A stretch of 64,000 bases of DNA from Methanosuratincola petrocarbonis. Lineage in GTDB: Archaea > Thermoproteota > Methanomethylicia > Methanomethylicales > Methanomethylicaceae. A program made the translations under genes and the position numbers. The first letter of the stretch is position 1. Each line of letters starts with the position of its first letter. Below the pieces are notes generated by a model. The model did no database searches. It worked only from the letters and a program-made list of their open reading frames with translations, and had not been told where the DNA came from. Where the stretch lies: positions 576,569 to 640,568 of the forward strand of contig CP130488.1 in assembly GCA_030522375.1 (NCBI GenBank), in the 5' to 3' direction. Positions 34,543 to 57,422 of the stretch are shown here, piece after piece.

Positions 34543-34878
34543 GTGGATGATCGCCCACAGATATTCTCCTAATTCCCTTAGATTTCTCTGAGAACATGGT
34601 ATTTGAGAAGCTCTGGATTTCGGGACTCTAAACAAGCCTGTTTGTTGTTGGAATTACTTCTTTGAAGTCAAGATTGCACAGAAGAGACGACAAATCTACT
34701 TCGTCTTTACTAATGATTTTTCCCTCTGAGAATGTTTTGTCCGCATCGAAAAACAGCTTCCAGCCTTTGCTTTGCCCTTGATCATTTAACCGTCTTGGCA
34801 TTGTGCCTTTTATAAGCTTATCGATCTCAGAAAGTAGCGTCTCATATTGGAAAATTTTAAGATTCTATATGATCCAAC

Positions 34879-35373
34879 ATGAAGAAGAGGGGCATTGGGG
34901 ATATGCCCAAAAAGAGCCTCACAATAGCAGCAGTAGCGATTATTGTAACTTTAGCATTGGTGTCTGTTGCCTTATGGTTCACTCAGGAGCTTAAACAAAG
35001 GGAAGCTATCAACAACGTCCAAATAGCCTTGGACGGGGTGAGCGTCGAGAGTATAGGATTAACAGGTGCGACGCTCAACATTAGATTAAGGGTGTACAAC
35101 CCTGGCACGATTACTGCAACTTTGGATCATGCAGATTACGACATGTACGGCAACAATGTTCATCTCGGAAACGGCACAATCTCTCAAAGAGTAGACATTC
35201 CGCCAGGTGGGACTAGGGCGGTTTCGACAGATTTCTACCTTTCGTATGCAGGGGTCGGGAATGTCCTTTGGAATGCCATCCGGGAAGGGAAAGTGACCTG
35301 GCGCGTAAGAGGCACCGCCTACTTTGATGCCCTTTTAGGCACTATAAACATCCCATTCGACCTCACTCTTTGA
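34879..35373 (+). CDS. LEA14-like / WHy (water-stress and hypersensitive response) domain protein with N-terminal TM anchor
   Basis: 164 aa. TM helix (LTIAAVAIIVTLALVSVALWF) then an LEA type-2-like beta-sandwich (ATLNIRLRVYNPG...ADYDMYGNNVHLG). Confidence 0.6.
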   Translation: MKKRGIGDMPKKSLTIAAVAIIVTLALVSVALWFTQELKQREAINNVQIALDGVSVESIGLTGATLNIRLRVYNPGTITATLDHADYDMYGNNVHLGNGTISQRVDIPPGGTRAVSTDFYLSYAGVGNVLWNAIREGKVTWRVRGTAYFDALLGTINIPFDLTL

Positions 35374-35507
35374 AGCTGCCCTTAGCCACGCCCTCGCTTT
35401 AGCGACCTTCGACAAGAAGCTCAAGAGAATAGCGATAGAAAAGGGTTGGGATTCGTTCCAGAAAGGCGTTACGATTGGCTTGTCAACCCTCAAAAACCCT
35501 CTTTATT

Positions 35508-35900
35508 TAACGGTGGGCTCTTCGCCTTTTCATCAGCAGAAAAATGGCTACTGCAATGATCAATATTACTAATACAAGTATCGCGGCCACTGTCCCTGGA
35601 ATCCATTGCTGGTCCTGCGGCTGGACCTCTTATACCGATAAGAAAACCGCCTGACTCTTGGCCCCCTCATGATCGCTGTCGCCCTCCCAGGAGGCGGTCA
35701 CTCCCCAGTTGCCCGGCAGATCAGGTGCAATAGCGAACTCGTAGCGCCCATGCCCGTCAGCTGCCGTGCTTACGGTCATGTTGCTCCTATCGGGCTTGGC
35801 GAAAACCAGCTTTATTGTCGCCCCTGGCATCGAGATGATTGATCCTGAGACATTAATGACGTCCTTAAAAGCCGCTGCAGGATTGGAAACTGAGCGCGAT
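35508..35900 (-). pseudogene. Frameshifted C-terminal remnant of a CarboxypepD_reg-type surface protein with a TM tail
   Basis: Minus-strand frames give ...KDVINVSGSIISMPGATIKLVFAKPDRSNMTVSTAADGHGRYEFAIAPDLPGNWGVTASWEG... and, after a frame switch, ...QPQDQQWIPGTVAAILVLVILIIAVAIFLLMKRRRAHR*. This resembles the C-terminus of the 15654-18119 surface protein. No N-terminal part is present. Confidence 0.45.
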
Positions 35901-36018
35901 TCCGCCAGGTTCCCTCGCGTTTGACTTAATATTTAGGTAATTTTACTAAAAAGGATAAGTAATCATTTAAAAAGGCTTAAATATAAAAATTAAAGAAAAA
36001 AATCCGTAGATAATAAAA

Positions 36019-36543
36019 ATGGTATCCAATAGTCTAAATTGGACAAACTGGTTAAAATTTAAAAATATTTGGGTAAGGAATGGAAGTAAATATTTCTTCC
36101 AATCTAAGGAAAATCTGCTCATTCCTGAAGATCCGGGTGTCTACCAAGTCAGGTGCATACAAAAAAACGATAAGCCGATTCAAATACAAAGGGCGAATGG
36201 TGTCGATACGGAGGGCATCCTCTACATAGGCAGCTCTAGTGATCTTATGGAAAGAATAAGGACTTTTTGGAGAGGGGTTAACGAGAATGTGCCTCCAAAT
36301 CTATTGCAAGCTTCTATTTCAAGCGCCAACATGTCCCAGATTTACAACCTTTTGAAAGTCCCTCATTCAGGTGCCAATACCTACGCGATTTTCCAGTTTG
36401 CTGGGGTTTTCCCTCAGGATTCTTTAGAAGTGCAGTGGGCTCAAACATCTACATACAAATCCGATGAAACAACTCTGTTATACGCATATATGGCAAAGTT
36501 TCTTGACAAGCCTCCTTTGAATCTTTCGATCAAGCGGTGGTGA
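36019..36543 (+). CDS. GIY-YIG nuclease-like protein
   Basis: PGVYQVRC...(20 aa)...ILYIGSSSDLMERIRTF matches GIY-x10-20-YIG plus the downstream R/E motif. 174 aa, AT-rich, with a strong AT-rich promoter-like region upstream. Confidence 0.5.
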   Translation: MVSNSLNWTNWLKFKNIWVRNGSKYFFQSKENLLIPEDPGVYQVRCIQKNDKPIQIQRANGVDTEGILYIGSSSDLMERIRTFWRGVNENVPPNLLQASISSANMSQIYNLLKVPHSGANTYAIFQFAGVFPQDSLEVQWAQTSTYKSDETTLLYAYMAKFLDKPPLNLSIKRW

Positions 36544-37546
36544 TTTTAGGGAAGAGCAAAGAGTGCCATTATTCGATCTATTGCTCCAGACATCTAGATG
36601 AACTGCATAAGGGGGGCGCAAAAAATCATGCGCGCCTAAGCGCCAAGATCGATTATCGATCTTCCCCCCATTTTCTTTGCATTGACCGTCAAATCAGCCC
36701 ACCAGAAAGCTCTCAAAACCATGAGTTTCGTAAAACGGTTTCAGTACTTCCTTCAGAACCAGGTTCTAGGTTGGATCCGCAAGGATGCTGTCCGTCCCCT
36801 GTTCAGCAACGGCGATCGCCGCCCATCCATTACCATGTAAAGTCACAGGCGCCATGGGATCTTACACTTCTGATACATGCGACGTCGTCCTTCCTTCGTA
36901 TTTGTTCAATCACCAGCCGATTGAGCCTGTGATCCTTCTTGCAAGAACCATGTCCGATACCTCTGGGCATGGGATGCAGAATGATAAATCCTTGCTGCGA
37001 GGACAGAATTCCAGCTCCACCCTGGATGCGCACAATTATGCATCTAGGATCGACTCACCAAAGGTGGCTCTGATAAAAAATGGATCTCACTGAAGTGATG
37101 ATCGAACAAGATGCAGGCATTTCAAGGGAAGCATGCTATGAGATCAGGAGACTGGACTGACTTCTTTTTGGAGCGAGGAGCTCTTCAACGGGGGACAAGT
37201 GCAAGGAGCGGCGCGTTTTCTGGCTGGGACTCGAGGTCCACTGGGGGCAAGGCCCACGGGAAGCGCGCCGGACCGGAAGGGGACGGGGGTGCCGAGGTTT
37301 GAGCTGGAGGGAGTGCGAGGGTGTCCTGGAGCTCCTGTTCCTGAGGATGCGCGGGTGCGGGTCGAAGGAAGAGTGCCGGGAGGCGGTGGAGGAGGTCCTG
37401 GCGCTCGTGAAGGAAAGGAAGCTCGAGAGGTTAAAAGAGCGGTTTGGGACGATGGGGTAGATGTTTTTAAAGCAGTGCTTAATGAATTCTATACTTGGCA
37501 AATAAGAACTAAATTTTTTATATAACAAATTTTCATACTTTGCTGC

Positions 37547-38002
37547 ATGGACACTGGTGATGAAAAACTGTTCTATTTTGCATACGGATCTAACATGGAT
37601 CCAGAACAAATGAAAGAAAGACAGGCAAAGTTTTTCTCGCGGAAAGGGGCCGTTCTAAGAGGATGGCAGCTCGTTTTTAACGTCGAATCGAAAACATGGA
37701 AATGCGGTGTTGCGAATATTGTCGAAAAAGAGGCCGCAAAGGTCGAAGGTGTGCTTTATGAGATCACAAAAAACAGTCTTGACGAATTAGATCGTTATGA
37801 AGGGTTTCCTAGAAAATATCAACGGAAATTGCTATCGGTCGAAAGTGAAGGCAAAGAATACAAAGCAGAAGTCTACATTTCAAAAGAAAATAAAGACGGG
37901 CTGAAGCCCTCAAAGAGATACTTGAAACAACTTCTGAAAGGGCAAGACGTTCTTTCCAAAGAGTACGTCGAGATGCTGAGGAAAGTGGAAACCCAGGACT
38001 AG
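37547..38002 (+). CDS. Gamma-glutamyl cyclotransferase (GGCT/AIG2-like) family protein
   Basis: FAYGSNM motif (YGS-N-hydrophobic) near the N-terminus and a catalytic Glu context (EGVLYEI). 151 aa. A TTTTATATA box lies about 30 nt upstream. Confidence 0.7.
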   Translation: MDTGDEKLFYFAYGSNMDPEQMKERQAKFFSRKGAVLRGWQLVFNVESKTWKCGVANIVEKEAAKVEGVLYEITKNSLDELDRYEGFPRKYQRKLLSVESEGKEYKAEVYISKENKDGLKPSKRYLKQLLKGQDVLSKEYVEMLRKVETQD

Positions 38003-38138
38003 ACAAAAAACCGGCAGTGTTGTTAAATCATGCTCTGGTCCTGATCCTGCGGAACCCCAGCAACTTGGAATTTTTTAATTTATAATTGATTAACTTTAAA
38101 TTAGCTACAATATATAGTAATTAAAGGATGGTGAAGAC

Positions 38139-38309
38139 ATGACAAAGTGTCCATATTGCGGCCATGATGGAGCAGACAAAGTGCTTAAATCGTGGCGATT
38201 TCGTTTCTACGATGTCAGGCGGATGGAATGTGAGAAGTGCGGTAAGAAATTTAACCACTATAAGGGCACCTCTGGAGGGAAAATTTCAGAGTTCTTTATC
38301 AAGATGTGA
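38139..38309 (+). CDS. Small Cys4 zinc-ribbon protein (56 aa)
   Basis: MTKCPYCGHDG...(24 aa)...CEKCGKKF gives two CxxC pairs. A GGTGA SD-like motif lies upstream. Below the ORF-track cutoff. Confidence 0.4.
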   Translation: MTKCPYCGHDGADKVLKSWRFRFYDVRRMECEKCGKKFNHYKGTSGGKISEFFIKM

Positions 38310-38586
38310 GGGGGGCTCAACGGAAGCTCGTGAGCCTCATGTTGATTCTGATTTTATCCCCAGCGCGCCGGAAATGGGGAAAAATCCAGTTTTCCCTATC
38401 CTGGTATTGGAGTGAGGTCTCTTACCGATGAGAGCATCAAAAGCAAGTTCCCTTTGTTCAACAAACGCAACTCCTCAATCACGTCCTCTGAAGTCTTAAT
38501 TCTTAATCGTAATTTTTTAGTATTAGAAGGCTTATAGAAATGCTATCACTCACTGTTAGAAGACGACTGTTTCGCGGTGTCTTTAT

Positions 38587-41286
38587 ATGAAAAATGTGTG
38601 GGAAGTTTGCGATTTTAGTGACGATATTAAGTTCGGGAGGTTTGATCCGAGCAGGTTTGCTGTTGAGCTTCATGCTGTTCTTGATGGAACGGCTGATCCT
38701 GTATATATAGATTCTAAACTTTTCCTTTCGAATACCTATCCGACATCGAACATGGCTTTCATATTGAAAGAAGCTTTGAAAAGGCTAAGTTCTAAGGGCA
38801 GTCAGCCAGTTTTCATTTTGGATACGGAGTTCGGAGGAGGAAAAACTCATACACTTCTCTTATTGTATCATGTATTTAGCAATAGAAGCATAGGCACAGA
38901 GTTCATTAGGGATTTGGGTATTGACAAGGAAATTGATGTTCTGGAAGTTCCAGAGGTAAGATTGGTGGCTATAGACTGTAGAAGCGTGAAGAGAAATACT
39001 CTTTGGGGCGAGTTAGCTGATGTTTTGGGGCATTATAAAGATTTTGAGGCTGAGGATTCTGCAAGGCAGCCTGTGCAGGATATCAGTAAATTTAAGTCTT
39101 TGCTTAAGGAGCCCACTCTGATTTTGATTGATGAGTTGCCAGATTATTTGCTTAGGGCGGCGGCTCGTGAGGTCGGAAAGGTAACACTCGCGGATCTAAC
39201 TTTGTCTTTCATAATTCACTTGATTAGCGCGGTTGCAACGAGTAAGAATTCCATGCTAATTATAACTTTGACCGGGAAGCAAAGCCTGTATGAGAGGTTT
39301 GTGAAGAGGTTTAAGGGGGAGTATCAGAGGATTCTGGACGGATTTTTGATTGAGGAGCTACATGACATAACTATTGAAGCGTCTTCTAGACAGACGAAGT
39401 TCATTGTTCCAGTAGAGAAGGACGAAGTTTCAAAGGTTATCCGAAAGCGTCTAGTGAAGAGCATAAAGGATGTGGATGAAGTCAGAAAAATAGTACGTGC
39501 ATATTGCGATTATTATCAGAATAAGGGAATATTGATAAGTCCTGGTTATGAAGAAAGGCTTGAAAATGCTTATCCGTTTCATCCGTTCCTCATTGACGTT
39601 CTTTATGAAAGAGTCTCAACCATCGAGGAGTTTAACAAGACCAGGGGCACACTTCGGTTATTGGCGATGATTTTACACAGGATTTATAGGGATAAAGTTG
39701 AATGTAAATTGGTTTCTGCCGGCGACATTCCCCTTCATGACCCTGAGATAAAGGATGAGCTTACTTCCAAGCTGGGGAAGGGTGATATGAGGCCCGTTAT
39801 CGAGGCCGACTGCATAGGCAAGGCGAAGGTTATTGACGGAAAGAGGAAAATTAAATTGGCTGAAAATATCGCTCGAACCATCTACTTATACTCGCTTATA
39901 GGGGCTGTGAAAATTTCGGGAATCAGGACGGGGGATGTGAAGCTTGCTGTTTGTCAGCCTGGAATTGACCCTGCTATTGTTGACGACATACTTAGAGAGA
40001 TGGACGAGGAATTTTGGTATTTGAAGCATGAAGCAGGCGAGTATTATTTTGATAAGGAGCCAAACATAAACAAGATAATTCACGATTACAATGGCGAGGT
40101 GAGGCCCGAAGAGGCTAGGGGAATTATCAAGAGCACTTTGGAGTCCATGCTTCCGAACGGTTCAGGTGTTAAATGCATAGTTTGGGATAAAGACAAGGTT
40201 ACCGACGAGCCTGACAGTCTTAAAATCTTTGCTCTTGATTACATGGATGTTGTCCGCTCTGATGAATTAGGCGTTCTCGAAAGCATTCTTGAAAGCAGAT
40301 CTGAGGGCGGGATTAGAAGTTATAGGAATACTGTAGTTATGCTCCTGCCTTATAAAGAGGGCGTGAATGCGTTAATGGAAAGTGCGGTATTGATCCGCGC
40401 TATTGAAAAGGCGAAAATGGACGAACGCATCAAGCTTGACAGGGATAGATTAAAGAAAATTAACGAGAAGCTTGAAGCCAGTAAGGGCCATATGGTTACG
40501 GACTGTCAAAACGTTTACTCAAAGGTGGTTTATCCTAGGATCGGCGATGGGAAACTGCAGATAGACGATTTGGGGTATGAAGAGAAAAAGAGCTTAACAG
40601 ATATGGTTTTGTCCCATCTTAGGCGTAGGGGAAAACTTGTTGACAACTTATCGGCATCAGCGATAGAGGATCTCTTGAAGGGGGATGGAGCTGGAAAAGA
40701 CAAAGTTCAGATTAAGGATATTTACACGCTTTATCGGACAGATAGACGGAAACCTTTCATACTTTGCGGCGCCGTTGTTCTTGACGCTGTTAGGAACGGT
40801 GTTAGGGAGGGCCTGTTCGGATATGCGAGGGAGCTTGTTGAGAAAGACGGTAAATACGTGGCGAAGCCTAGAGAAGAAGTATTCAGCGTGGACTGGGAAG
40901 GATGGATTATAAAACCAGATCTCGTTTACGTTGAAGAGAAAAAGGAGCGGGAAAAAGAAAAAGAAGAGGAAAGGAAACCTTGGCCTCCGCCAGAGCCCCT
41001 TTATAATTATCGTTTTGAATGTAAAAGTTTGAATGAAGCCTTGGAGCACCTGAATAAGCTTAAAGTTTTGTCTGTGGGTCGGGCCTTGGATATGCGCATT
41101 TCAATCAGTCTTATAAACGAAAGCGAAGACAAGGTCAGCATTGAAAGTAAATTGAAGAAGCTCGGGGAGCTTGAGAGTCTGCTTAATGTACTTAGGTCTA
41201 AGGGCTATTCTGGAAACGGCGAAATCACAGTAAGCTCTAAAGAGGATCTAAGCGAAGATTTGAAAAGGTATGGTTTGAGGGGTTAG
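38587..41286 (+). CDS. DUF499-type P-loop ATPase (BrxC/PglY-like, COG1483-like)
   Basis: 899 aa. Walker A TEFGGGKTHTLLLLYH and Walker B LILIDELPDY. Long alpha-helical C-terminal region. First gene of a co-directional cassette with the MTase and helicase. Confidence 0.8.
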   Translation: MKNVWEVCDFSDDIKFGRFDPSRFAVELHAVLDGTADPVYIDSKLFLSNTYPTSNMAFILKEALKRLSSKGSQPVFILDTEFGGGKTHTLLLLYHVFSNRSIGTEFIRDLGIDKEIDVLEVPEVRLVAIDCRSVKRNTLWGELADVLGHYKDFEAEDSARQPVQDISKFKSLLKEPTLILIDELPDYLLRAAAREVGKVTLADLTLSFIIHLISAVATSKNSMLIITLTGKQSLYERFVKRFKGEYQRILDGFLIEELHDITIEASSRQTKFIVPVEKDEVSKVIRKRLVKSIKDVDEVRKIVRAYCDYYQNKGILISPGYEERLENAYPFHPFLIDVLYERVSTIEEFNKTRGTLRLLAMILHRIYRDKVECKLVSAGDIPLHDPEIKDELTSKLGKGDMRPVIEADCIGKAKVIDGKRKIKLAENIARTIYLYSLIGAVKISGIRTGDVKLAVCQPGIDPAIVDDILREMDEEFWYLKHEAGEYYFDKEPNINKIIHDYNGEVRPEEARGIIKSTLESMLPNGSGVKCIVWDKDKVTDEPDSLKIFALDYMDVVRSDELGVLESILESRSEGGIRSYRNTVVMLLPYKEGVNALMESAVLIRAIEKAKMDERIKLDRDRLKKINEKLEASKGHMVTDCQNVYSKVVYPRIGDGKLQIDDLGYEEKKSLTDMVLSHLRRRGKLVDNLSASAIEDLLKGDGAGKDKVQIKDIYTLYRTDRRKPFILCGAVVLDAVRNGVREGLFGYARELVEKDGKYVAKPREEVFSVDWEGWIIKPDLVYVEEKKEREKEKEEERKPWPPPEPLYNYRFECKSLNEALEHLNKLKVLSVGRALDMRISISLINESEDKVSIESKLKKLGELESLLNVLRSKGYSGNGEITVSSKEDLSEDLKRYGLRG

Positions 41287-41290
41287 CAGT

Positions 41291-41644
41291 TTGAGGTCTG
41301 TGAAATACCGCCTTGAAGAAAGCGGGAGTGGAAAAACCGCGTGTCTGCAGGCGGTAATAGAGGATAGGTTTGGACGTAAAAAAGTCAGTCTTTCTAGGCT
41401 TAGAGGGTGGCGAAAAGAAATAGCGGAGGAGCATTTAAAGCTTGAAAGCGGAAAATGGGACGATGATGCCGCAAAAACTCTTGTGAGTTTAGAAGCCTTA
41501 AAATGCGCAAGAAGCCTGGATGAAGCCTTAAAGTTTTTGCAGGCTGTAAATAGCTTAAGCCAGCTTGATCTTCATTTCTGGGCAACTAAATTCTTGAACG
41601 ATGATAAAAAACCCAGAAGGGCTTGGAGGATGCTTTATGGATAA
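41291..41644 (+). CDS. Small hypothetical protein between the ATPase and methyltransferase
   Basis: 117 aa. Starts 5 nt after the ATPase stop and its stop overlaps the MTase start, so it is translationally coupled. No recognisable family. Confidence 0.45.
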   Translation: MRSVKYRLEESGSGKTACLQAVIEDRFGRKKVSLSRLRGWRKEIAEEHLKLESGKWDDDAAKTLVSLEALKCARSLDEALKFLQAVNSLSQLDLHFWATKFLNDDKKPRRAWRMLYG

Positions 41645-44231
41645 AACATTGATGGACAACAAGAGCGTCGAACACCTAAAACTGTTTGCGGATGTTAGCG
41701 AGGAGGCTAGGAAGGAAAAACTTGGCAGGCCGCCTATAAGTGAAATGATTTATTGGTGGACGAGAAAGCCGCTTATTGTTGGAAGGACTGTAACACTTCT
41801 TTCGTTGCTTCCTGAAAACACCAATCTGGCTGATGTTAAGCCTTTGCTGGGGCTCGGTAGGGAAAAAAGAGCTTTCAATTATGCGCCAAAGCTTGAGTCT
41901 ATAAAGAAGAATGCGGGCAAGCCACTAGACTCGTTAACCGTGTTTGATCCTTTTGCTGGAGCTGGCAACCTTCTATTTGAGGCGGCCCGTTTGGGGCCTA
42001 ACTGCACAGCTATGGACTATAATCCTGTTGCACACATTATATTGAAGGCTACGTTGGAATACCCGGCTGTTTATGGCGAAAGGCTTGCAGAGGACGTTGA
42101 GCGATATGGCAAATTGGTAATAGAGCGGGCGAAGAAAGAGGTCGGCAAGTTCTACTATAGAAAGAACGGTCGCCAAACCTTGCATTATTTGTGGTGTTGG
42201 TGTATAAAATGCCCTTATTGCGGTCAAAGAGTGCCCCTAACGAATCAAATGTGGCTTGATAAAAAAAGGAAAACAGGCTATAGGATTAAGCCTACGAAAG
42301 ACAACGACTTTGAGATAGAAGTTGGAATGGTAAGTGATAAAGAAGGCTCGAAGTACACCCAGAAAGACGGGGAAGCCACCTGCATAAAATGCAAAAACGC
42401 AATAAGTTATCAGCACATGACCAAAGACATTGCTGAGAGAAGAGACAAACAAATGATAGCAGTCGTAGTCAAGGCACAGAAAGGAAAAGACTATGAACCG
42501 TTCACGATGGAGGATATAGAATTATTCAATAAAGCAACGGCAGAGCTGAAGGACCAATGGGCAAATCTAATAAGCCAAGACCTAATCCCGCAAGAGGAAC
42601 TCAAAGAATCAGAATTATTCCGTGTAACTAATTATGGCTTGAAAAAGTGGTTTGAGTTTTTCAACGAGAGACAATTGCTTTTGATGTCCACGCTTTTGCG
42701 CATCATCCGCGATGTCTGCTCGGAAATAGTGGACAAAGAATACAGAAAGGCTATAGCCACTTACTTGGGGCTGATGATGTGCAAGCATGTTGATCACAAT
42801 TGTATTGGTGTGAGATGGGACCCAACAAAACAGATAACTTGTGATTCCCTATCTATGAGAAGTCCCCGTATTATCTACAATTTCGCTGAAACCAACCCGT
42901 TTGAGAAGACTAGCGGTTCATTTCACAGTGTATTACGGAATGTTGTTGATGCGGTAAGTTTTGCGGCGTTGAATAAGACGCCTGCTAAGGTTTTGCGCGG
43001 TTCTGCAGTAAATATGGCTGTATCAAACAAATTTGACTTAGTTTTAACTGACCCGCCATATATGGAGGATGTCGCTTATGCGGAGTTGAGCGAATTTTTC
43101 TATGTGTGGCTCACTAGAGTTCTCAGAGACTATTATCCTGAGTTGCCATCAACAGTTCCAAGCGATGAAGATCTTGTTTTAAGCAAGGGTAGGTTCGGCG
43201 GAAACGAAAAACTTGCTTTAGAGTTTTATAAGAAAGGCATGACTTTAGCCTTCCAAAACATCTACAAGTCCCTTAAAGATGACGGGCTTTTGGTGGTCTT
43301 CTTTGCCCATTCAAGTACCGAGGCCTGGGATCTTCTCTTAGAGGTTTTAAGGGGATCCAGGTTTAGGGTGGTTTCCAGCTATGCCGTGCACACGGAAAGC
43401 ACAGAAAATCCTTTGGCAAGAGGCAAGACTTCCTTCATGAGTTCCATAGTGCTTTCATGCAGGAAGATACTTGAGGATAAAGAGGCTTATTTTGAAAGCC
43501 TCATGCCCAGAGTTGAGGAAGAGATAAAAGAGTTAATTGAAGGTTTAAGCGACGAGGATCTGCTCAGCCTTCCCATAACCGACCTCCTTATAATGGCCTA
43601 CGGTAAAGTGCTTGAAGAATTAACACAATACTCCCAAATCAAAAGCTACAGGGCTGATTTCAAGGCTAAATTTGAAGATTTGATAGGCGAAGCCAGAGAC
43701 TTCATCTTCAGAGAAGTCGTAAGAAAGCTAACTGGAAGATCGCTTAACATTTTAGGACCCGAAGCCTCATTCGCACTTATAACAAAAATCTTTTACAGAA
43801 GCTCAATCCCTAGTGATGAAGCCCTAAAAGTTGTTAGAGCGTATGGGCTGACCGTCGACGCCCTAGTGAAAAAGGGCTACGCCAAAAAAATCAGCGGCGG
43901 AATAGAAATAACGCCCTTCACAGAAGTCCCCTTAGACATCAGCCCCGAAGAAGTGGAAAGAAACAACCTCTACCAACAACTCCTCTACCTATTAAAAACA
44001 GCCAACGAGAAAGGGGCGCCGGCCATCAAACAGCTGCTGTCATCCTACGGCAACTTCGGGCTTCAAGAACTCCAATACATCATAAACCTACTGACAAAAC
44101 ATTATAGACTGCTCATTAACAAAGGCGAAGAACTTAGAGACAGCGAAAAAATCGAACTCCAAGTTTTAGATTCTATATCAGATGTTATAGGCCAGCCAAT
44201 GCAAAGAAGGACCCTCGACAGCTTCACTTAA
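41637..44231 (+). CDS. DUF1156-type N6-adenine/N4-cytosine DNA methyltransferase with an internal zinc ribbon (COG1743-like, PglX-like role)
   Basis: SAM motif I VFDPFAGAGNL and catalytic motif IV LVLTDPPYMEDVAY (DPPY). A CxxC...CxxC zinc ribbon (CIKCPYCGQ...CIKCKNA) lies between them. Long C-terminal domain. The ORF track starts at 41601; the in-frame ATG at 41637 overlaps the upstream stop. Confidence 0.85.
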   Translation: MDKTLMDNKSVEHLKLFADVSEEARKEKLGRPPISEMIYWWTRKPLIVGRTVTLLSLLPENTNLADVKPLLGLGREKRAFNYAPKLESIKKNAGKPLDSLTVFDPFAGAGNLLFEAARLGPNCTAMDYNPVAHIILKATLEYPAVYGERLAEDVERYGKLVIERAKKEVGKFYYRKNGRQTLHYLWCWCIKCPYCGQRVPLTNQMWLDKKRKTGYRIKPTKDNDFEIEVGMVSDKEGSKYTQKDGEATCIKCKNAISYQHMTKDIAERRDKQMIAVVVKAQKGKDYEPFTMEDIELFNKATAELKDQWANLISQDLIPQEELKESELFRVTNYGLKKWFEFFNERQLLLMSTLLRIIRDVCSEIVDKEYRKAIATYLGLMMCKHVDHNCIGVRWDPTKQITCDSLSMRSPRIIYNFAETNPFEKTSGSFHSVLRNVVDAVSFAALNKTPAKVLRGSAVNMAVSNKFDLVLTDPPYMEDVAYAELSEFFYVWLTRVLRDYYPELPSTVPSDEDLVLSKGRFGGNEKLALEFYKKGMTLAFQNIYKSLKDDGLLVVFFAHSSTEAWDLLLEVLRGSRFRVVSSYAVHTESTENPLARGKTSFMSSIVLSCRKILEDKEAYFESLMPRVEEEIKELIEGLSDEDLLSLPITDLLIMAYGKVLEELTQYSQIKSYRADFKAKFEDLIGEARDFIFREVVRKLTGRSLNILGPEASFALITKIFYRSSIPSDEALKVVRAYGLTVDALVKKGYAKKISGGIEITPFTEVPLDISPEEVERNNLYQQLLYLLKTANEKGAPAIKQLLSSYGNFGLQELQYIINLLTKHYRLLINKGEELRDSEKIELQVLDSISDVIGQPMQRRTLDSFT

Positions 44232-44243
44232 AGGGAAAGCGCT

Positions 44244-47200
44244 ATGATTCAGATAGGCTCAAGGGTTAAAATAAGAGGAAAAAACGAAACTGGAGCAGTT
44301 CTAGAGCTTAGGGGAAACTTCGCTCGAGTTTTAACGCTCACAGCCGACACGTGGCATCCAATCGAAGAATTAGAAGAAGACCTCTCTTTAATAGACCGCA
44401 TAATTACTGTAAATCTGGACGATGGATTAGACTTCATCCTGTCAATGGACGCCTACAGGCTGCTCTCAGAATACAAATTCAACCCCTACGTTCTAGCCTC
44501 ATCAACAAAAATCAGGATCTTTCCCCACCAGATAGACGAAGTCACAAGAATCCTTGACATGCCAAGGATGATGATCGCTGACGAGGTCGGTCTAGGCAAA
44601 ACAATAACCGCTGCGTTGGTCGCAAATGAACTCAAAGCCAGAGGGTTAGCAAACAAGCTACTATTTGTTGTGCCAAAGGCTCTGCTCTACAAGTGGCGCG
44701 ATGAATTAAACAACAGATTTGAAATGACTGCAGAAATCCTAGACTCCACCTATGTAAAAATACACGGGCCCCCTCTAGGCAAAAGGGAGTTCTGCTACAT
44801 CTCATCTATGGACTATCTAAAACAGAGCCATGTTATAAAAATGATTGAAGACGCAGAATTCGACATAACCGTAATCGACGAAGCCCACAAACTAGCGCTA
44901 AATACTGACAGACTAAAACTGGGCGAATGCCTAGCTCCAAGAACTAATCACATGCTTTTCCTGACGGCGACGCCCCACAACGGCGATAATGAGGACTATC
45001 TTAATAGAATCAAACTTTTAGACCCCTACATAACGGATGTGCAATCCGCCTCTCACATTCTAATTAGGAACCTAAAAGAGGATGTAGTAGACCTTGAAGG
45101 GAAAGAAGTCTTCCCTCCTAGGCAAAGCAAAACCGTATCTATCCCCATAAGCGAGGAAGAAACAAAACTTCACAGAATGGTGGATGAATATATCTCAAGA
45201 CGTATAGACGAAGCCCGGGATCGACAGGAATACAACGCAATGAGGTTTTTAGGGGGCATAATTCGCAAAAGAGCGTCGTCATCCCTAAAAGCCCTCAAAC
45301 TGACATTGGAAAGAAGACTAACAAGGCTAGGACAGGCTGTGAACGCAGAACAGGCCATAAAAAGAATGAAGGAGGCTGAAGAAGAGTTCGACGAGGAACA
45401 ATATGAGGAAAGCGAACAAGAGGTCGTAGGGATTTCGGGCTACTCCATAGAAGAAGATCGCAAAGAACTTGCAGAGTTGTTAGCTGAACTTGAAAAGATC
45501 CATGAAGATTCTAAAATAAAACATTTGATGAGCTTCATAGATACGATAAAGAAAGGCGATAAAACGACAAAAATAGTGATTTTTAGCGAATATAGAGACA
45601 CCGTAGACTACCTTTTCGAAAACCTGGCCAACAAGTATAGACTCGCGAAAATATACGGAGTCATGAACGTCGATGAGCGACATAATGCTTTGGCCAATTT
45701 TAGGGATCCAAATGGTGCGGAAATAATGGTCTGTACTGACGCGGCTGGTGAGGGCATAGACATGCAATTCGCCAACATAATGATAAACTACGACCTTCCA
45801 TGGAACCCAAACAGGCTCGAGCAAAGAATGGGGAGGATACATAGAATAGGTCAGACAAGACCTGTATACTATTACAACTTTATATTGTCGGGCACTATTG
45901 ACGGATACATTTTAAGTAAACTGTTAGAAAAAATCGAAGCAATAAAAGAAGCCATAGGCGACAAAGTCTACGATGTCGTTGGAAAACTTCTTTCAGAGGA
46001 AGGCATTTCAAGCCTATACGAAGAATTTTTGAAAGTACCTAAGGAGCTTTGGGAGGCCAAAGTCAAGAGGGTTGACGATATAATTGAGGAACGCAGGCGA
46101 ATATTGAATGAAATCAACGCCCTCCTCTCTGGACACAGGCTTGATAGAAGCAAACTTGAAGAAATCAAAAAAGTAAGACTCGAAGCCGTCGAAAAAGGTG
46201 AAGTTAAACGCTTCATAGAGGTCTACCTGGGAACTAAAGGAGGGAAAATAGAGCCCGTAAGAGAAGAAGACGAAGTTTACAGGCTAATGCTTCCGGCAAA
46301 GCTTGCACACAATCTTAACTACGGAACATTGGTCGGCAGCTTTTCAAATACAGTTGCAGAACAGAAAAACTATCCATACCTAGCTCTAGGAAACAAATGC
46401 ATAATGAGTATGATTTTGGACGCTATGAAGCCATCCGTCTCAATCTTTAAGCACGAAACATTAAGCGGAATACTTTACATTTATCGCGTCATATTGAAAG
46501 ATGGAAAGGGACAAGAAAGAAACGGAAAAATAATAGTTCTTCATTACTCCGAGGGAAAAATAAGGGAAATAGATCCAAGGAGCATATGGGATCTCGAACC
46601 TGTCGTCGGGGAAGAGCCTGAAATAGACACTAAAAACATTATTGAAGGCAAAAATTCAGCGGATCAGGCTCTACTCAAAATCGTATCCGACCTCAAAAAT
46701 GAAACCTCAGCAAAAATCGAGGAAATAAAGAACAAAACAAGAGACATAATCATAGCGTACTACTCAAGAAGAGTTGAGGAAAGTCGCAGAAAGATCGAGG
46801 ATTACCAGAATAGACTACAAGAGAGCCCCCACTACTCCAAGCTAATAAATAAAGAAGAGAGCACAATAAACTCGCTAAAACTAGAACTTGACTCAAATCT
46901 AACAGAAATATCCTCAGTATTTAATATTTACACCCTCTACGAGCTTATAGGCACGGCCATAATCATAGGAAAGCCAGGCGCAGACATCAAGAAGAAAGTG
47001 GAAAACGCAGGAGTTCAGGCAGTCATAAAATACGAAATGGAAAGGGCCAAAACAGAAGAGGAAAGAAACAGAATCAGAGATGTCTCTGACCAATATAAGG
47101 GATACGATGTAGAATCTTTTGACAGAGTGATTGAAGTCAAATCCTTTAGCACAACAGGATCAGTAGAAATGACAAGCAATGAATGGGAAACGGCTAACAG

Positions 47201-47366
47201 AATTAAAGAAGCATACTGGCTTTACACCGTGGAAAACGCCTTAGACAATCCTATAGTTTACCCAATACAAAACCCAACAGTAAAATTCAAGGATCTAGTA
47301 GAAAAAATTCCCATAATAGACTATAGATATAGAATTGACAAATGGAAAACCGCATCAACAAAATAG
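44244..47366 (+). CDS. SNF2-family helicase with a C-terminal DUF3883-like PD-(D/E)xK nuclease-like domain
   Basis: Motif I DEVGLGKTITA, motif II DEAHKL, motif III LFLTATPHNG, motif V VCTDAAGEGIDMQ, motif VI RMGRIHRIGQTR. C-terminal GYDVESFDRVIEVKSF matches the DUF3883-like restriction-endonuclease fold. 1040 aa. Confidence 0.85.
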   Translation: MIQIGSRVKIRGKNETGAVLELRGNFARVLTLTADTWHPIEELEEDLSLIDRIITVNLDDGLDFILSMDAYRLLSEYKFNPYVLASSTKIRIFPHQIDEVTRILDMPRMMIADEVGLGKTITAALVANELKARGLANKLLFVVPKALLYKWRDELNNRFEMTAEILDSTYVKIHGPPLGKREFCYISSMDYLKQSHVIKMIEDAEFDITVIDEAHKLALNTDRLKLGECLAPRTNHMLFLTATPHNGDNEDYLNRIKLLDPYITDVQSASHILIRNLKEDVVDLEGKEVFPPRQSKTVSIPISEEETKLHRMVDEYISRRIDEARDRQEYNAMRFLGGIIRKRASSSLKALKLTLERRLTRLGQAVNAEQAIKRMKEAEEEFDEEQYEESEQEVVGISGYSIEEDRKELAELLAELEKIHEDSKIKHLMSFIDTIKKGDKTTKIVIFSEYRDTVDYLFENLANKYRLAKIYGVMNVDERHNALANFRDPNGAEIMVCTDAAGEGIDMQFANIMINYDLPWNPNRLEQRMGRIHRIGQTRPVYYYNFILSGTIDGYILSKLLEKIEAIKEAIGDKVYDVVGKLLSEEGISSLYEEFLKVPKELWEAKVKRVDDIIEERRRILNEINALLSGHRLDRSKLEEIKKVRLEAVEKGEVKRFIEVYLGTKGGKIEPVREEDEVYRLMLPAKLAHNLNYGTLVGSFSNTVAEQKNYPYLALGNKCIMSMILDAMKPSVSIFKHETLSGILYIYRVILKDGKGQERNGKIIVLHYSEGKIREIDPRSIWDLEPVVGEEPEIDTKNIIEGKNSADQALLKIVSDLKNETSAKIEEIKNKTRDIIIAYYSRRVEESRRKIEDYQNRLQESPHYSKLINKEESTINSLKLELDSNLTEISSVFNIYTLYELIGTAIIIGKPGADIKKKVENAGVQAVIKYEMERAKTEEERNRIRDVSDQYKGYDVESFDRVIEVKSFSTTGSVEMTSNEWETANRIKEAYWLYTVENALDNPIVYPIQNPTVKFKDLVEKIPIIDYRYRIDKWKTASTK

Positions 47367-56876: not shown

Positions 56877-57422
56877 TCATCCGCCAATCGACTTGATCAG
56901 CTCTTCCTTAAGGCTCCTCTGCAGAATCTGCTGGTAGGCGCTGACCACCTTTGGGGACTTCTGACCCAGTAGCTTCCTGCAGATCGAGGGATCCCGCACA
57001 GTCTCCAGCAACCGGATCGCGAAGGCATGCCTCCAGCTAGCGACCCTGATCCTCCTCCCGAGGATCATCTCTGTGTACTTGTGGTTTATGTTGAGGGCTT
57101 GCCGGCGGCTCAGCCCGAAGATCCTTTCCTCGGATTTCTTGTCCTTTGCATAGTCCTTGAGGTAGGGCAGTATCGAGGGCATCACCAGGACCTCGCGCGC
57201 CTCCTCCCCTGACCCGACACGGACTATCCCTTGCTGGAAATCGACGTCCCCTTTCCTCATCGAGAGCAGCTCGGACGTTTTCATCCCTGTAGTCGGGTAG
57301 AGGCTCATCAGGACGAAGTCCCTGAGGCTTATCTCCCTCTTCCTGTACAGCGCCCTTATCCTGTCCAGGAACTCGCCAACTTCCGACCATGTCGGGACAT
57401 CGTCAAGTTTCAGCTTTGCCAT
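56877..57422 (-). CDS. Minimal tyrosine recombinase (phage integrase catalytic domain only)
   Basis: 181 aa. HAFAIRLLE (HxxR) and a C-terminal VVSAYQQ catalytic Tyr context. The first conserved Arg is replaced by Lys (TGMKTSE). Confidence 0.7.
   Translation of the reverse strand: MAKLKLDDVPTWSEVGEFLDRIRALYRKREISLRDFVLMSLYPTTGMKTSELLSMRKGDVDFQQGIVRVGSGEEAREVLVMPSILPYLKDYAKDKKSEERIFGLSRRQALNINHKYTEMILGRRIRVASWRHAFAIRLLETVRDPSICRKLLGQKSPKVVSAYQQILQRSLKEELIKSIGG

Follow-up and report, generated by a model that had tools for sequence, protein, structure and literature searches.

A Swi2/Snf2 helicase with a predicted C-terminal PD-(D/E)XK nuclease module in Methanosuratincola petrocarbonis is very probably HmaA, the effector of a DUF499-centred defence system

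To which system does a helicase ending in a nuclease-like module belong, and is that module likely to cut DNA? We asked these questions of one gene of the archaeon Methanosuratincola petrocarbonis, lying at positions 44244 to 47366 of a 64,000-nucleotide stretch of contig CP130488.1 (assembly GCA_030522375.1, positions 576,569 to 640,568), the whole stretch being called the window hereafter. A first-pass annotation of this DNA had proposed a translocase-nuclease fusion and candidate effector, departing from canonical BREX by its nuclease. The open reading frame (ORF) is real at exactly these coordinates. Its product is very probably HmaA, the helicase-nuclease effector of an Hma defence system (the same as the DUF499-centred Type-1 "BREX-Related", BR, systems), acquired with that system horizontally as a low-GC island. 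That the protein is HmaA and that it is competent as a nuclease are claims that we hold, taken together, with high confidence. The Hma system was reportedly first named in the PADLOC survey.

Much of the background to this gene is already in print. The family DUF3883 was placed in the PD-(D/E)XK superfamily in 2012, when helicase fusions were also noted (PMC3424549), and an SNF2-DUF3883 fusion in DUF499 operons was described a year later, in 2013 (PMC3710099). In 2024, the NOV_C domain of HmaA from Halomonas meridiana SCSIO 43005 was reported to be a Mn2+/Mg2+-dependent nickase needed for defence against phage T4 (PMC11232893), and in 2026 these loci were reclassified as DUF499-centred BREX-Related systems (PMC12839542, Nucleic Acids Research). 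The helicase-DUF3883 fusion, its fold and the nickase activity were therefore known, and they are also annotated in public domain tables.

The two halves expected of such a fusion are both recognisable in the protein. The complete set of SNF2 motifs mentioned by the first-pass annotation is there and intact, with motif I (GLGKT) at residue 116, motif II (DEAH) at 212, motif III (TATP) at 241 and motif VI (RMGRIHRIGQ) at 528; Pfam matches SNF2-rel_dom at residues 110-263 and Helicase_C at 424-536. At the other end, the Pfam family PF13020 (NOV_C, formerly DUF3883) matches residues 925-1006 with E=2e-15; the score of 57 bits, for a curated cutoff of 22.1 bits, puts this match far beyond chance. 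The two names designate one family: the 2012 survey lists "DUF3883 PF13020" (PMC3424549) and the Halomonas study applies both names to the same protein (PMC11232893). The first-pass annotation had given DUF3883 the last ~120 amino acids; the strings it quoted are present and the family holds, but the module extends in the structure model over residues ~913-1040, i.e. 128 amino acids. Its motif reads G953-Y-D955, I-E964-V-K966, N-E980-W and Y991-W-L-Y-T-V-E997, with E931 further upstream.

The residues of this motif are strongly conserved. A homolog search over 5.8 billion proteins gave 4581 relatives at E<=1e-10, of which the best 120 are full-length and 41-76% identical to the helicase. Most of these 120 were recovered in metagenome bins of archaea (Nitrososphaerota, Caldarchaeum, Nitrosocaldus, Alkanophagales), and nearly all of them carry PF13020. 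Among 121 aligned sequences, E964 is kept in 118, K966 in 116, and E931, D955 and E980 in 115 each, i.e. in at least 95%. The five residues are invariant (73/73) in a curated set of relatives that leaves out truncated and methyltransferase-tailed variants, and these homologs show no sign of the catalytically dead arrangement that the first-pass annotation had envisaged as an objection. Nor do the five residues vary in an alignment of four other archaeal C-termini with five bacterial ones of the HmaA type; the latter differ mainly in a longer beta2-beta3 hairpin. Homologs of both HmaB and HmaC are encoded in three of the bacterial loci (L005, L007 and L049), whereas L008 has one of HmaB alone and the fetched region of L009 contains neither. 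These loci come from a scan of contigs with the helicase alignment. Since the scan patterns were generic Snf2 motifs, unrelated Snf2 helicases (DrmD- or BrxH-like) make up most of the 80 loci, and the informative ones are only L003, L005, L007, L008, L009 and L049.

The predicted structure of the module agrees with its family. An AlphaFold2 (AF2) model of residues 888-1040, built on the 73-sequence alignment, has a mean predicted local distance difference test score (pLDDT) of 90.7 and a predicted template modelling score (pTM) of 0.79. It runs from alpha1, bearing E931, through two short strands (D955 at the second, beta2), beta3 with E964 and K966, another short strand, alpha2 with E980 and beta4 (YWLYTVE) to further strands and helices. 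In the model this topology is the canonical PD-(D/E)XK core, alpha-beta-beta-beta-alpha-beta. When the model is compared with the PDB by Foldseek, the top ten matches are all PD-(D/E)XK nucleases, each individually weak; they include fusellovirus D212 (2w8m), Sulfolobus Hjc (4tkd), the SPARDA nuclease domain (chains of 9qcc and 9vx6), Hjc ST1444 (2eo0), PvuII and ThaI. Against the predicted viral structures of BFVD the best match has E=6.6e-4; SSV2 ORF211 and RecU/Hjc Holliday junction resolvases can be recognised there by name, most top matches being unnamed or uncharacterised. From the PDB comparison we used the family identity of the top matches and not their statistics. Because no single PDB structural match is significant, the assignment of the fold, which is the one proposed in the first-pass annotation, rests on the Pfam family, on the topology together with the placement of the residues, and on the consistent identity of the structural neighbours.

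What precedes the module also points to this lineage of helicases. The full-length AF2 model (pLDDT 86.7, pTM 0.80) has as its best whole-protein structural matches E. coli RapA (8spg with E=4e-34, 6bog, 8t0l) over ~1000 aligned columns; the matches to RapA and others to chromatin remodellers also support the Snf2 core. The accessory elements of RapA and BrxHII are visible in the model: an N-terminal barrel, a putative degenerate restriction endonuclease (REase) domain and, after it, a second alpha+beta domain into which a coiled coil is inserted. The barrel strands are at residues 6-10, 15-23, 26-30, 35-39 and 43-45, and the secondary structure of the model suggests that residues 1-45 form a putative Tudor-like domain. 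Residues 636-730 make an alpha+beta domain that lacks a conserved D/E/K triad and corresponds to the published "inactive REase"; in the curated set, the only invariant residues within 636-782 are R656, F657, G698, A714, L715, G716, G742 and W782. The second alpha+beta domain has a beta-sheet, with long helices at 796-856 and 863-892 inserted ahead of its last strand, 896-909. As modelled, the whole helicase would thus have the published BrxHII/BR architecture plus the extra C-terminal REase that defines Type-1 BR helicases (PMC12839542).

The neighbours of the gene complete the system. Four tightly packed genes follow one another on the forward strand: a DUF499 ATPase (HmaC), a small ORF, a DUF1156 methylase (HmaB) and, last, the helicase. 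This operon is kept in six archaeal loci. PADLOC matches the helicase to HmaA (1.8e-96), the methylase to HmaB and the ATPase to HmaC (E-values of the last two in Table 1). HmaC has a P-loop (GGGKT) near residue 83 and a Walker B motif (LILIDE) at 178; it matches the NCBIfam model DUF499_antiphage with 5.4e-65 and 220 bits, under the 1200-bit equivalog cutoff. Neither Pfam nor motif inspection revealed an N-terminal HEPN domain in it. HmaB has the S-adenosylmethionine (SAM) motif FDPFAGAG at 115, the catalytic DPPY at 484 and two CxxC pairs, and matches DUF1156_antiphage with 2.1e-64. The locus therefore combines what characterises Hma/Type-1 BR systems: Snf2 helicase motifs, a C-terminal NOV_C/DUF3883, an adjacent DUF499 ATPase, an adjacent DUF1156 methylase and RapA/BrxHII-like domains. 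The locus is not canonical BREX, and BREX, with which the first-pass annotation had compared the helicase, was the wrong term of comparison, since Hma/Type-1 BR normally has the fusion. The helicase-REase fusion is found in 1921 of 2446 Type-1 BR taxa (79%), including 203 archaea (PMC12839542). Because the fusion is the rule, it is neither a departure from the family of this protein nor new.

How might these proteins work together? The co-transcribed DUF1156 N6-adenine methylase would mark the host DNA, and the DUF499 AAA+ ATPase would aid the recognition of foreign DNA, or the loading or assembly of the complex on it. Binding and hydrolysis of ATP by the Snf2 motor would move the protein on DNA or activate it, motif mutants of the Halomonas protein being known to alter defence. 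The C-terminal module would then bind Mg2+ or Mn2+ by E931, D955 and E964, assisted by K966 and E980, and would nick and eventually linearise the target. Nicking and linearising were demonstrated for the domain of Halomonas HmaA; here they are suggested by the conserved residues and the modelled fold. In Halomonas the conserved residues are D1084, E1104, K1106 and E1121, their quadruple mutant (M4) lost both nicking and defence against T4, defence also depends on helicase motif VI, and the NOV_C domain was superposed on the resolvase Hjc, 1GEF (PMC11232893). As to what directs the nuclease, discrimination guided by methylation, along the restriction-modification (RM)-like model of PMC12839542, has in our opinion an even chance of being right; the motor would then bring the nuclease to DNA that lacks the modification, or activate it there.

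Several observations weigh against parts of this interpretation. The PADLOC HmaA profile covers only residues 57-657 (profile positions 69-730 of 1176), and on the helicase core the BrxHI and DrmD profiles equal its score (~1e-96). The locus might then be canonical BREX (type 3 or 5) or DISARM, and the helicase a BrxHII or DrmD that has, unusually, a nuclease added to it. Indeed, PADLOC BrxHI and BrxHII (5.9e-98 and 1.5e-91) and DrmD (3.6e-96) score this helicase as HmaA does, and its best NCBIfam match is DISARM_DrmD (2.7e-107). But the latter reaches 360 bits for an equivalog cutoff of 610, the ATPase is DUF499/HmaC, the methylase is DUF1156/HmaB and not PglX (2.6e-12 against 5.8e-75), and Pfam, PADLOC and the contig of a metagenome-assembled genome (MAG) gave no PglZ, BrxA, BrxB, BrxL, DrmA, DrmB (DUF1998) or DrmC among the ORFs of 34.8-49.6 kb or in the 10 kb downstream. 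We rejected on these grounds canonical BREX (types 1-6) and DISARM class 1, and an affiliation of the locus to either seems to us extremely improbable. The marks of Type-2 BR, DUF3780 and the HKD-helicase, had no Pfam or PADLOC match either among the ORFs of 34.8-49.6 kb or on the annotated MAG contig. Since BrxH, DrmD and HmaA profiles tie on the helicase core, we assign the gene to Hma by its C-terminal domain and its genetic context, not by the helicase score. Other points of the same kind concern the nuclease. The best Foldseek match in the PDB has E=0.07, probability 0.91 and TM (template modelling score) 0.47, with none at E<=1e-3. Searches of PDB sequences with the module, as a single sequence or as a 10-sequence profile, gave no meaningful match and the module therefore has no close relative with a solved structure. 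The hairpin between D and ExK has 9 residues here and 20 in Halomonas HmaA. The module could be an inert PD-(D/E)XK-like domain that binds or senses DNA, like the internal "inactive REase", leaving the helicase as a mere translocase; inactive REase domains are common in this BrxHII/RapA lineage (PMC12839542), and no individual structural match is significant. Such an inert tail is very unlikely given that none of the five predicted catalytic residues varies among 73 relatives and that all are shared with the compared bacterial HmaA-type helicases, whereas a conserved acidic/lysine triad is missing from the internal domain at 636-730, and that mutating the corresponding Halomonas residues jointly abolished nicking and defence (PMC11232893).

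The remaining adverse points bear on the RM-like step. In E. coli, Halomonas hmaA alone protected from T4 at low multiplicity of infection (MOI) and not at an MOI of 10, a behaviour akin to abortive infection; T4 grown on cells overexpressing HmaB was not protected, which weakens a simple RM-like model; and the C-terminal fragment nicked supercoiled pUC19 and not linear lambda DNA (PMC11232893). HmaA might accordingly be an abortive-infection nickase, whose helicase senses a cue of infection and whose nuclease nicks supercoiled DNA indiscriminately, that of the host included, HmaB and HmaC being regulators or independent. Yet single-gene tests in a heterologous E. coli may not mirror the native complex. 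Besides, in all the archaeal loci that we examined the helicase is accompanied by an apparently active N6-methylase (FDPFAGAG, DPPY), as it is in the published tripartite core (PMC12839542), and strict linkage of methylase and helicase is what modification-dependent self-protection predicts. We thus rank methylation-guided discrimination above the abortive-infection nickase, which we regard as a serious but less probable mechanism.

Table 1. Features of the hma locus and of its helicase (window coordinates).
Feature	Position	Strand	Size, residues and basis
HmaC, DUF499 AAA+ (STAND/ORC-like) ATPase	38587..41286	+	899 aa; PADLOC HmaC 9.7e-88; Pfam DUF499 8.4e-51
Small conserved ORF	41291..41644	+	117 aa, TTG start; no known family
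HmaB, DUF1156 N6-adenine DNA methyltransferase	41601..44231	+	876 aa; PADLOC HmaB 5.8e-75; Pfam DUF1156, N6_N4_Mtase, MethyltransfD12
HmaA, Swi2/Snf2 helicase-nuclease (very probable)	44244..47366	+	1040 aa; entire gene of the first-pass annotation
N-terminal five-stranded beta-barrel, putative Tudor-like domain of BR/BrxHII/RapA-type helicases	44244..44378	+	residues 1-45; AF2 secondary structure and architecture in PMC12839542
Swi2/Snf2 ATPase core, motifs I/II/III/VI	44421..46133	+	~residues 60-630; Pfam, motifs, Foldseek
Two RapA-like alpha+beta domains	46149..46970	+	AF2 secondary structure, conservation, description in PMC12839542
C-terminal NOV_C/DUF3883 PD-(D/E)XK nuclease module (predicted)	46980..47363	+	residues 913-1040; Pfam, conservation, AF2, Foldseek
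Predicted catalytic codons	E931 47034-47036; D955 47106-47108; E964 47133-47135; K966 47139-47141; E980 47181-47183

The operon stands in a region of unusual composition. GC content falls to 0.37-0.47 over 37.4-47.4 kb, with sharp edges near 34.6 and 47.7 kb, while the flanks are at 0.55-0.65 and encode housekeeping functions (LUD/Fe-S upstream, PhoU/PHO4 downstream). A tRNA search of the window found none, and att sites were not identified because the repeats flanking the island are only short and at chance level. We interpret this region as an island by which the hma system was horizontally acquired. Its upstream part (34600-38580) includes a LEA_2-domain protein (34879..35373), two family-less ORFs (36019..36543 and 36537..36932), a GGACT/AIG2-like gamma-glutamyl cyclotransferase (37547..38002) and, in the MAG annotation, a 56-aa zinc-ribbon ORF at ~38.1-38.3 kb; none of these genes has a PADLOC match. 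Some 9.5 kb downstream of the helicase lies a Phage_integrase (PF00589) gene on the reverse strand (~56880-57350 and beyond; L001 20866-21342), adjoining a second GC dip at 58-62 kb (0.50-0.52). As housekeeping genes part it from the hma island, this integrase probably belongs to a different mobile element. The flanks of three related archaeal loci (L085, L086 and L087) contain transposases (DDE_Tnp_1, rve), DUF87/HerA-like ATPases, an AbiTii protein and QueC/TGT genes, which fits defence-island and mobile contexts.

Some relatives of the helicase have another tail. Four proteins (P0061, P0067, P0077 and P0087), 50-54% identical to it over the helicase, have in the place of the nuclease a class-I SAM methyltransferase (PF05148/PF08241, GDFGCG). 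Loci of this kind are L083 (4261-7626) and L084 (9001-12267). The swap begins at about residue 905, just past the final strand of the alpha+beta domain. In L084, where the order of genes is DUF87, DUF1156, DUF499, small ORF and helicase, the helicase is followed by a separate NmeDI_C restriction-endonuclease-like gene of 388 aa.

The second gene of the operon deserves attention of its own. It begins 4 nt past the stop of HmaC and overlaps the start of the methylase, to which it appears translationally coupled. The start of the methylase may be the ATG at 41637. A homolog of this small ORF is found just after the DUF499 ATPase gene in all six archaeal loci, i.e. the window and five others: L003 (5958-6311), L084 (8475-8825), L085 (6047-6400), L086 (6103-6399) and L087 (6027-6386), these homologs being 98-119 aa long. 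In five of the six (the window, L003 and L085-L087) its neighbours are the ATPase on one side and the DUF1156 methylase on the other, with its 3' end overlapping the start of the methylase. The exception is L084, where the methylase is upstream and a 52-aa ORF comes after the small one. At 37-51% identity, the homologs have in common the invariant motifs DRFG, GWR, HFW and AW..G, and the conserved motifs can be written more fully as DDRFGK, GWR, HFWA.KFL and AWR.LYG. At E<=1e-3 the family amounts to 30 clusters, in a set of 1.84 billion representatives. It has no relative in Pfam, NCBIfam, PADLOC or the PDB: the PADLOC match to LmuA (E=0.004) is weak and at chance level, a sub-threshold match to DUF7680 (E=0.005) concerns a single family member, and a comparison with DUF3780 gave nothing even at E<=5. 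We propose tentatively, at slightly less than even confidence, that the small gene encodes an unrecognised fourth subunit of the archaeal Hma/Type-1 BR clade, an adaptor or regulator that would gate the helicase-nuclease or couple it to the methylase or the ATPase, and that the helicases of this clade have at their C-terminus a socket for exchangeable effectors. The role of the small protein would resemble the one proposed for DUF3780 in Type-2 BR.

The same island is found in another assembly. The helicase is 100% identical to proteins on contig MAGV01000036.1 of GCA_001717015.1 and on a metagenome contig of the Joint Genome Institute (JGI). This MAG contig (L002) spans 36.3-47.0 kb of the island and is identical to the window there save for one cluster of differences at 40.5-41.0 kb, whereas the chromosome downstream, at 47.5-53 kb, diverges by 1-4%. 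The cluster lies towards the C-terminal end of the DUF499 gene and includes a 17-bp indel (40899-40915) that frameshifts HmaC in the MAG, giving 776 and 85 aa instead of 899 aa. Possible explanations are variation between strains within the proposed sensor region, a recent sweep of the island or an assembly artefact.

These results give a correct functional annotation to a defence island of Ca. Methanosuratincola petrocarbonis, a methanogenic archaeon of the Methanomethylicia (formerly Verstraetearchaeota). The virus-host biology of this group is almost unstudied, and the Hma/Type-1 BR effector appears from its sequence to retain there an intact nuclease module. The fusion does not change the understanding of the Hma/Type-1 BR system. 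What may add to the published descriptions is chiefly the conserved fourth gene, and also the swaps of nuclease for methyltransferase at a fixed junction.

How does this protein compare with known systems? Like Halomonas HmaA it has a Swi2/Snf2 motor and a C-terminal NOV_C (PF13020), with D on beta2, ExK on beta3 and E on alpha2 in the model, and DUF1156 and DUF499 partners. It differs in its archaeal host, in its length (1040 aa against ~1150-1190) and in the gene order, which is C-x-B-A with the extra small gene instead of the A-B-C of the three bacterial loci examined. It resembles the Type-1 BR helicase-REase (PMC12839542) in its predicted succession of Tudor-like barrel, Snf2 core, degenerate REase, alpha+beta domain with coiled-coil insert and C-terminal PD-(D/E)XK, and in a tripartite core with DUF499 ATPase and N6-methyltransferase that has no PglZ, DUF3780 or HKD domain. 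Yet PMC12839542 gives three genes only, while the archaeal clade has a conserved fourth small ORF, and the DUF499 protein lacks the N-terminal HEPN found in 1370 of 2446 Type-1 taxa (PMC12839542). With E. coli RapA (8spg, 6bog, 8t0l) it shares the order of domains (Tudor-like, Snf2, alpha+beta, alpha+beta/coiled-coil) at ~17% identity, but RapA begins with Tudor-like domains in tandem, lacks a C-terminal nuclease and recycles RNA polymerase instead of serving in defence. As modelled, the module has the minimal core of the Hjc/Hje resolvases and D212 (4tkd, 2eo0, 1ob8, 2w8m), in which alpha1 bears E, beta2 bears D and beta3 bears ExK; the likeness is at the level of the fold only (E 0.07-1, TM 0.39-0.47, 11-15% identity), and those proteins are stand-alone dimeric junction resolvases. 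Finally, ZorD (Snf2 and Mrr-like), Hna, DdmD and the HKD-helicase of Type-2 BR, the latter with the same core of ATPase, methyltransferase and helicase, follow the same logic of a superfamily 2 (SF2) motor fused to a nuclease effector. They differ in the family or position of the nuclease (Mrr-like, N-terminal HKD/phospholipase D, PLD), and the PADLOC profiles ZorD and PLD_Helicase match our protein in the helicase lobes only (1e-27 to 3e-32).

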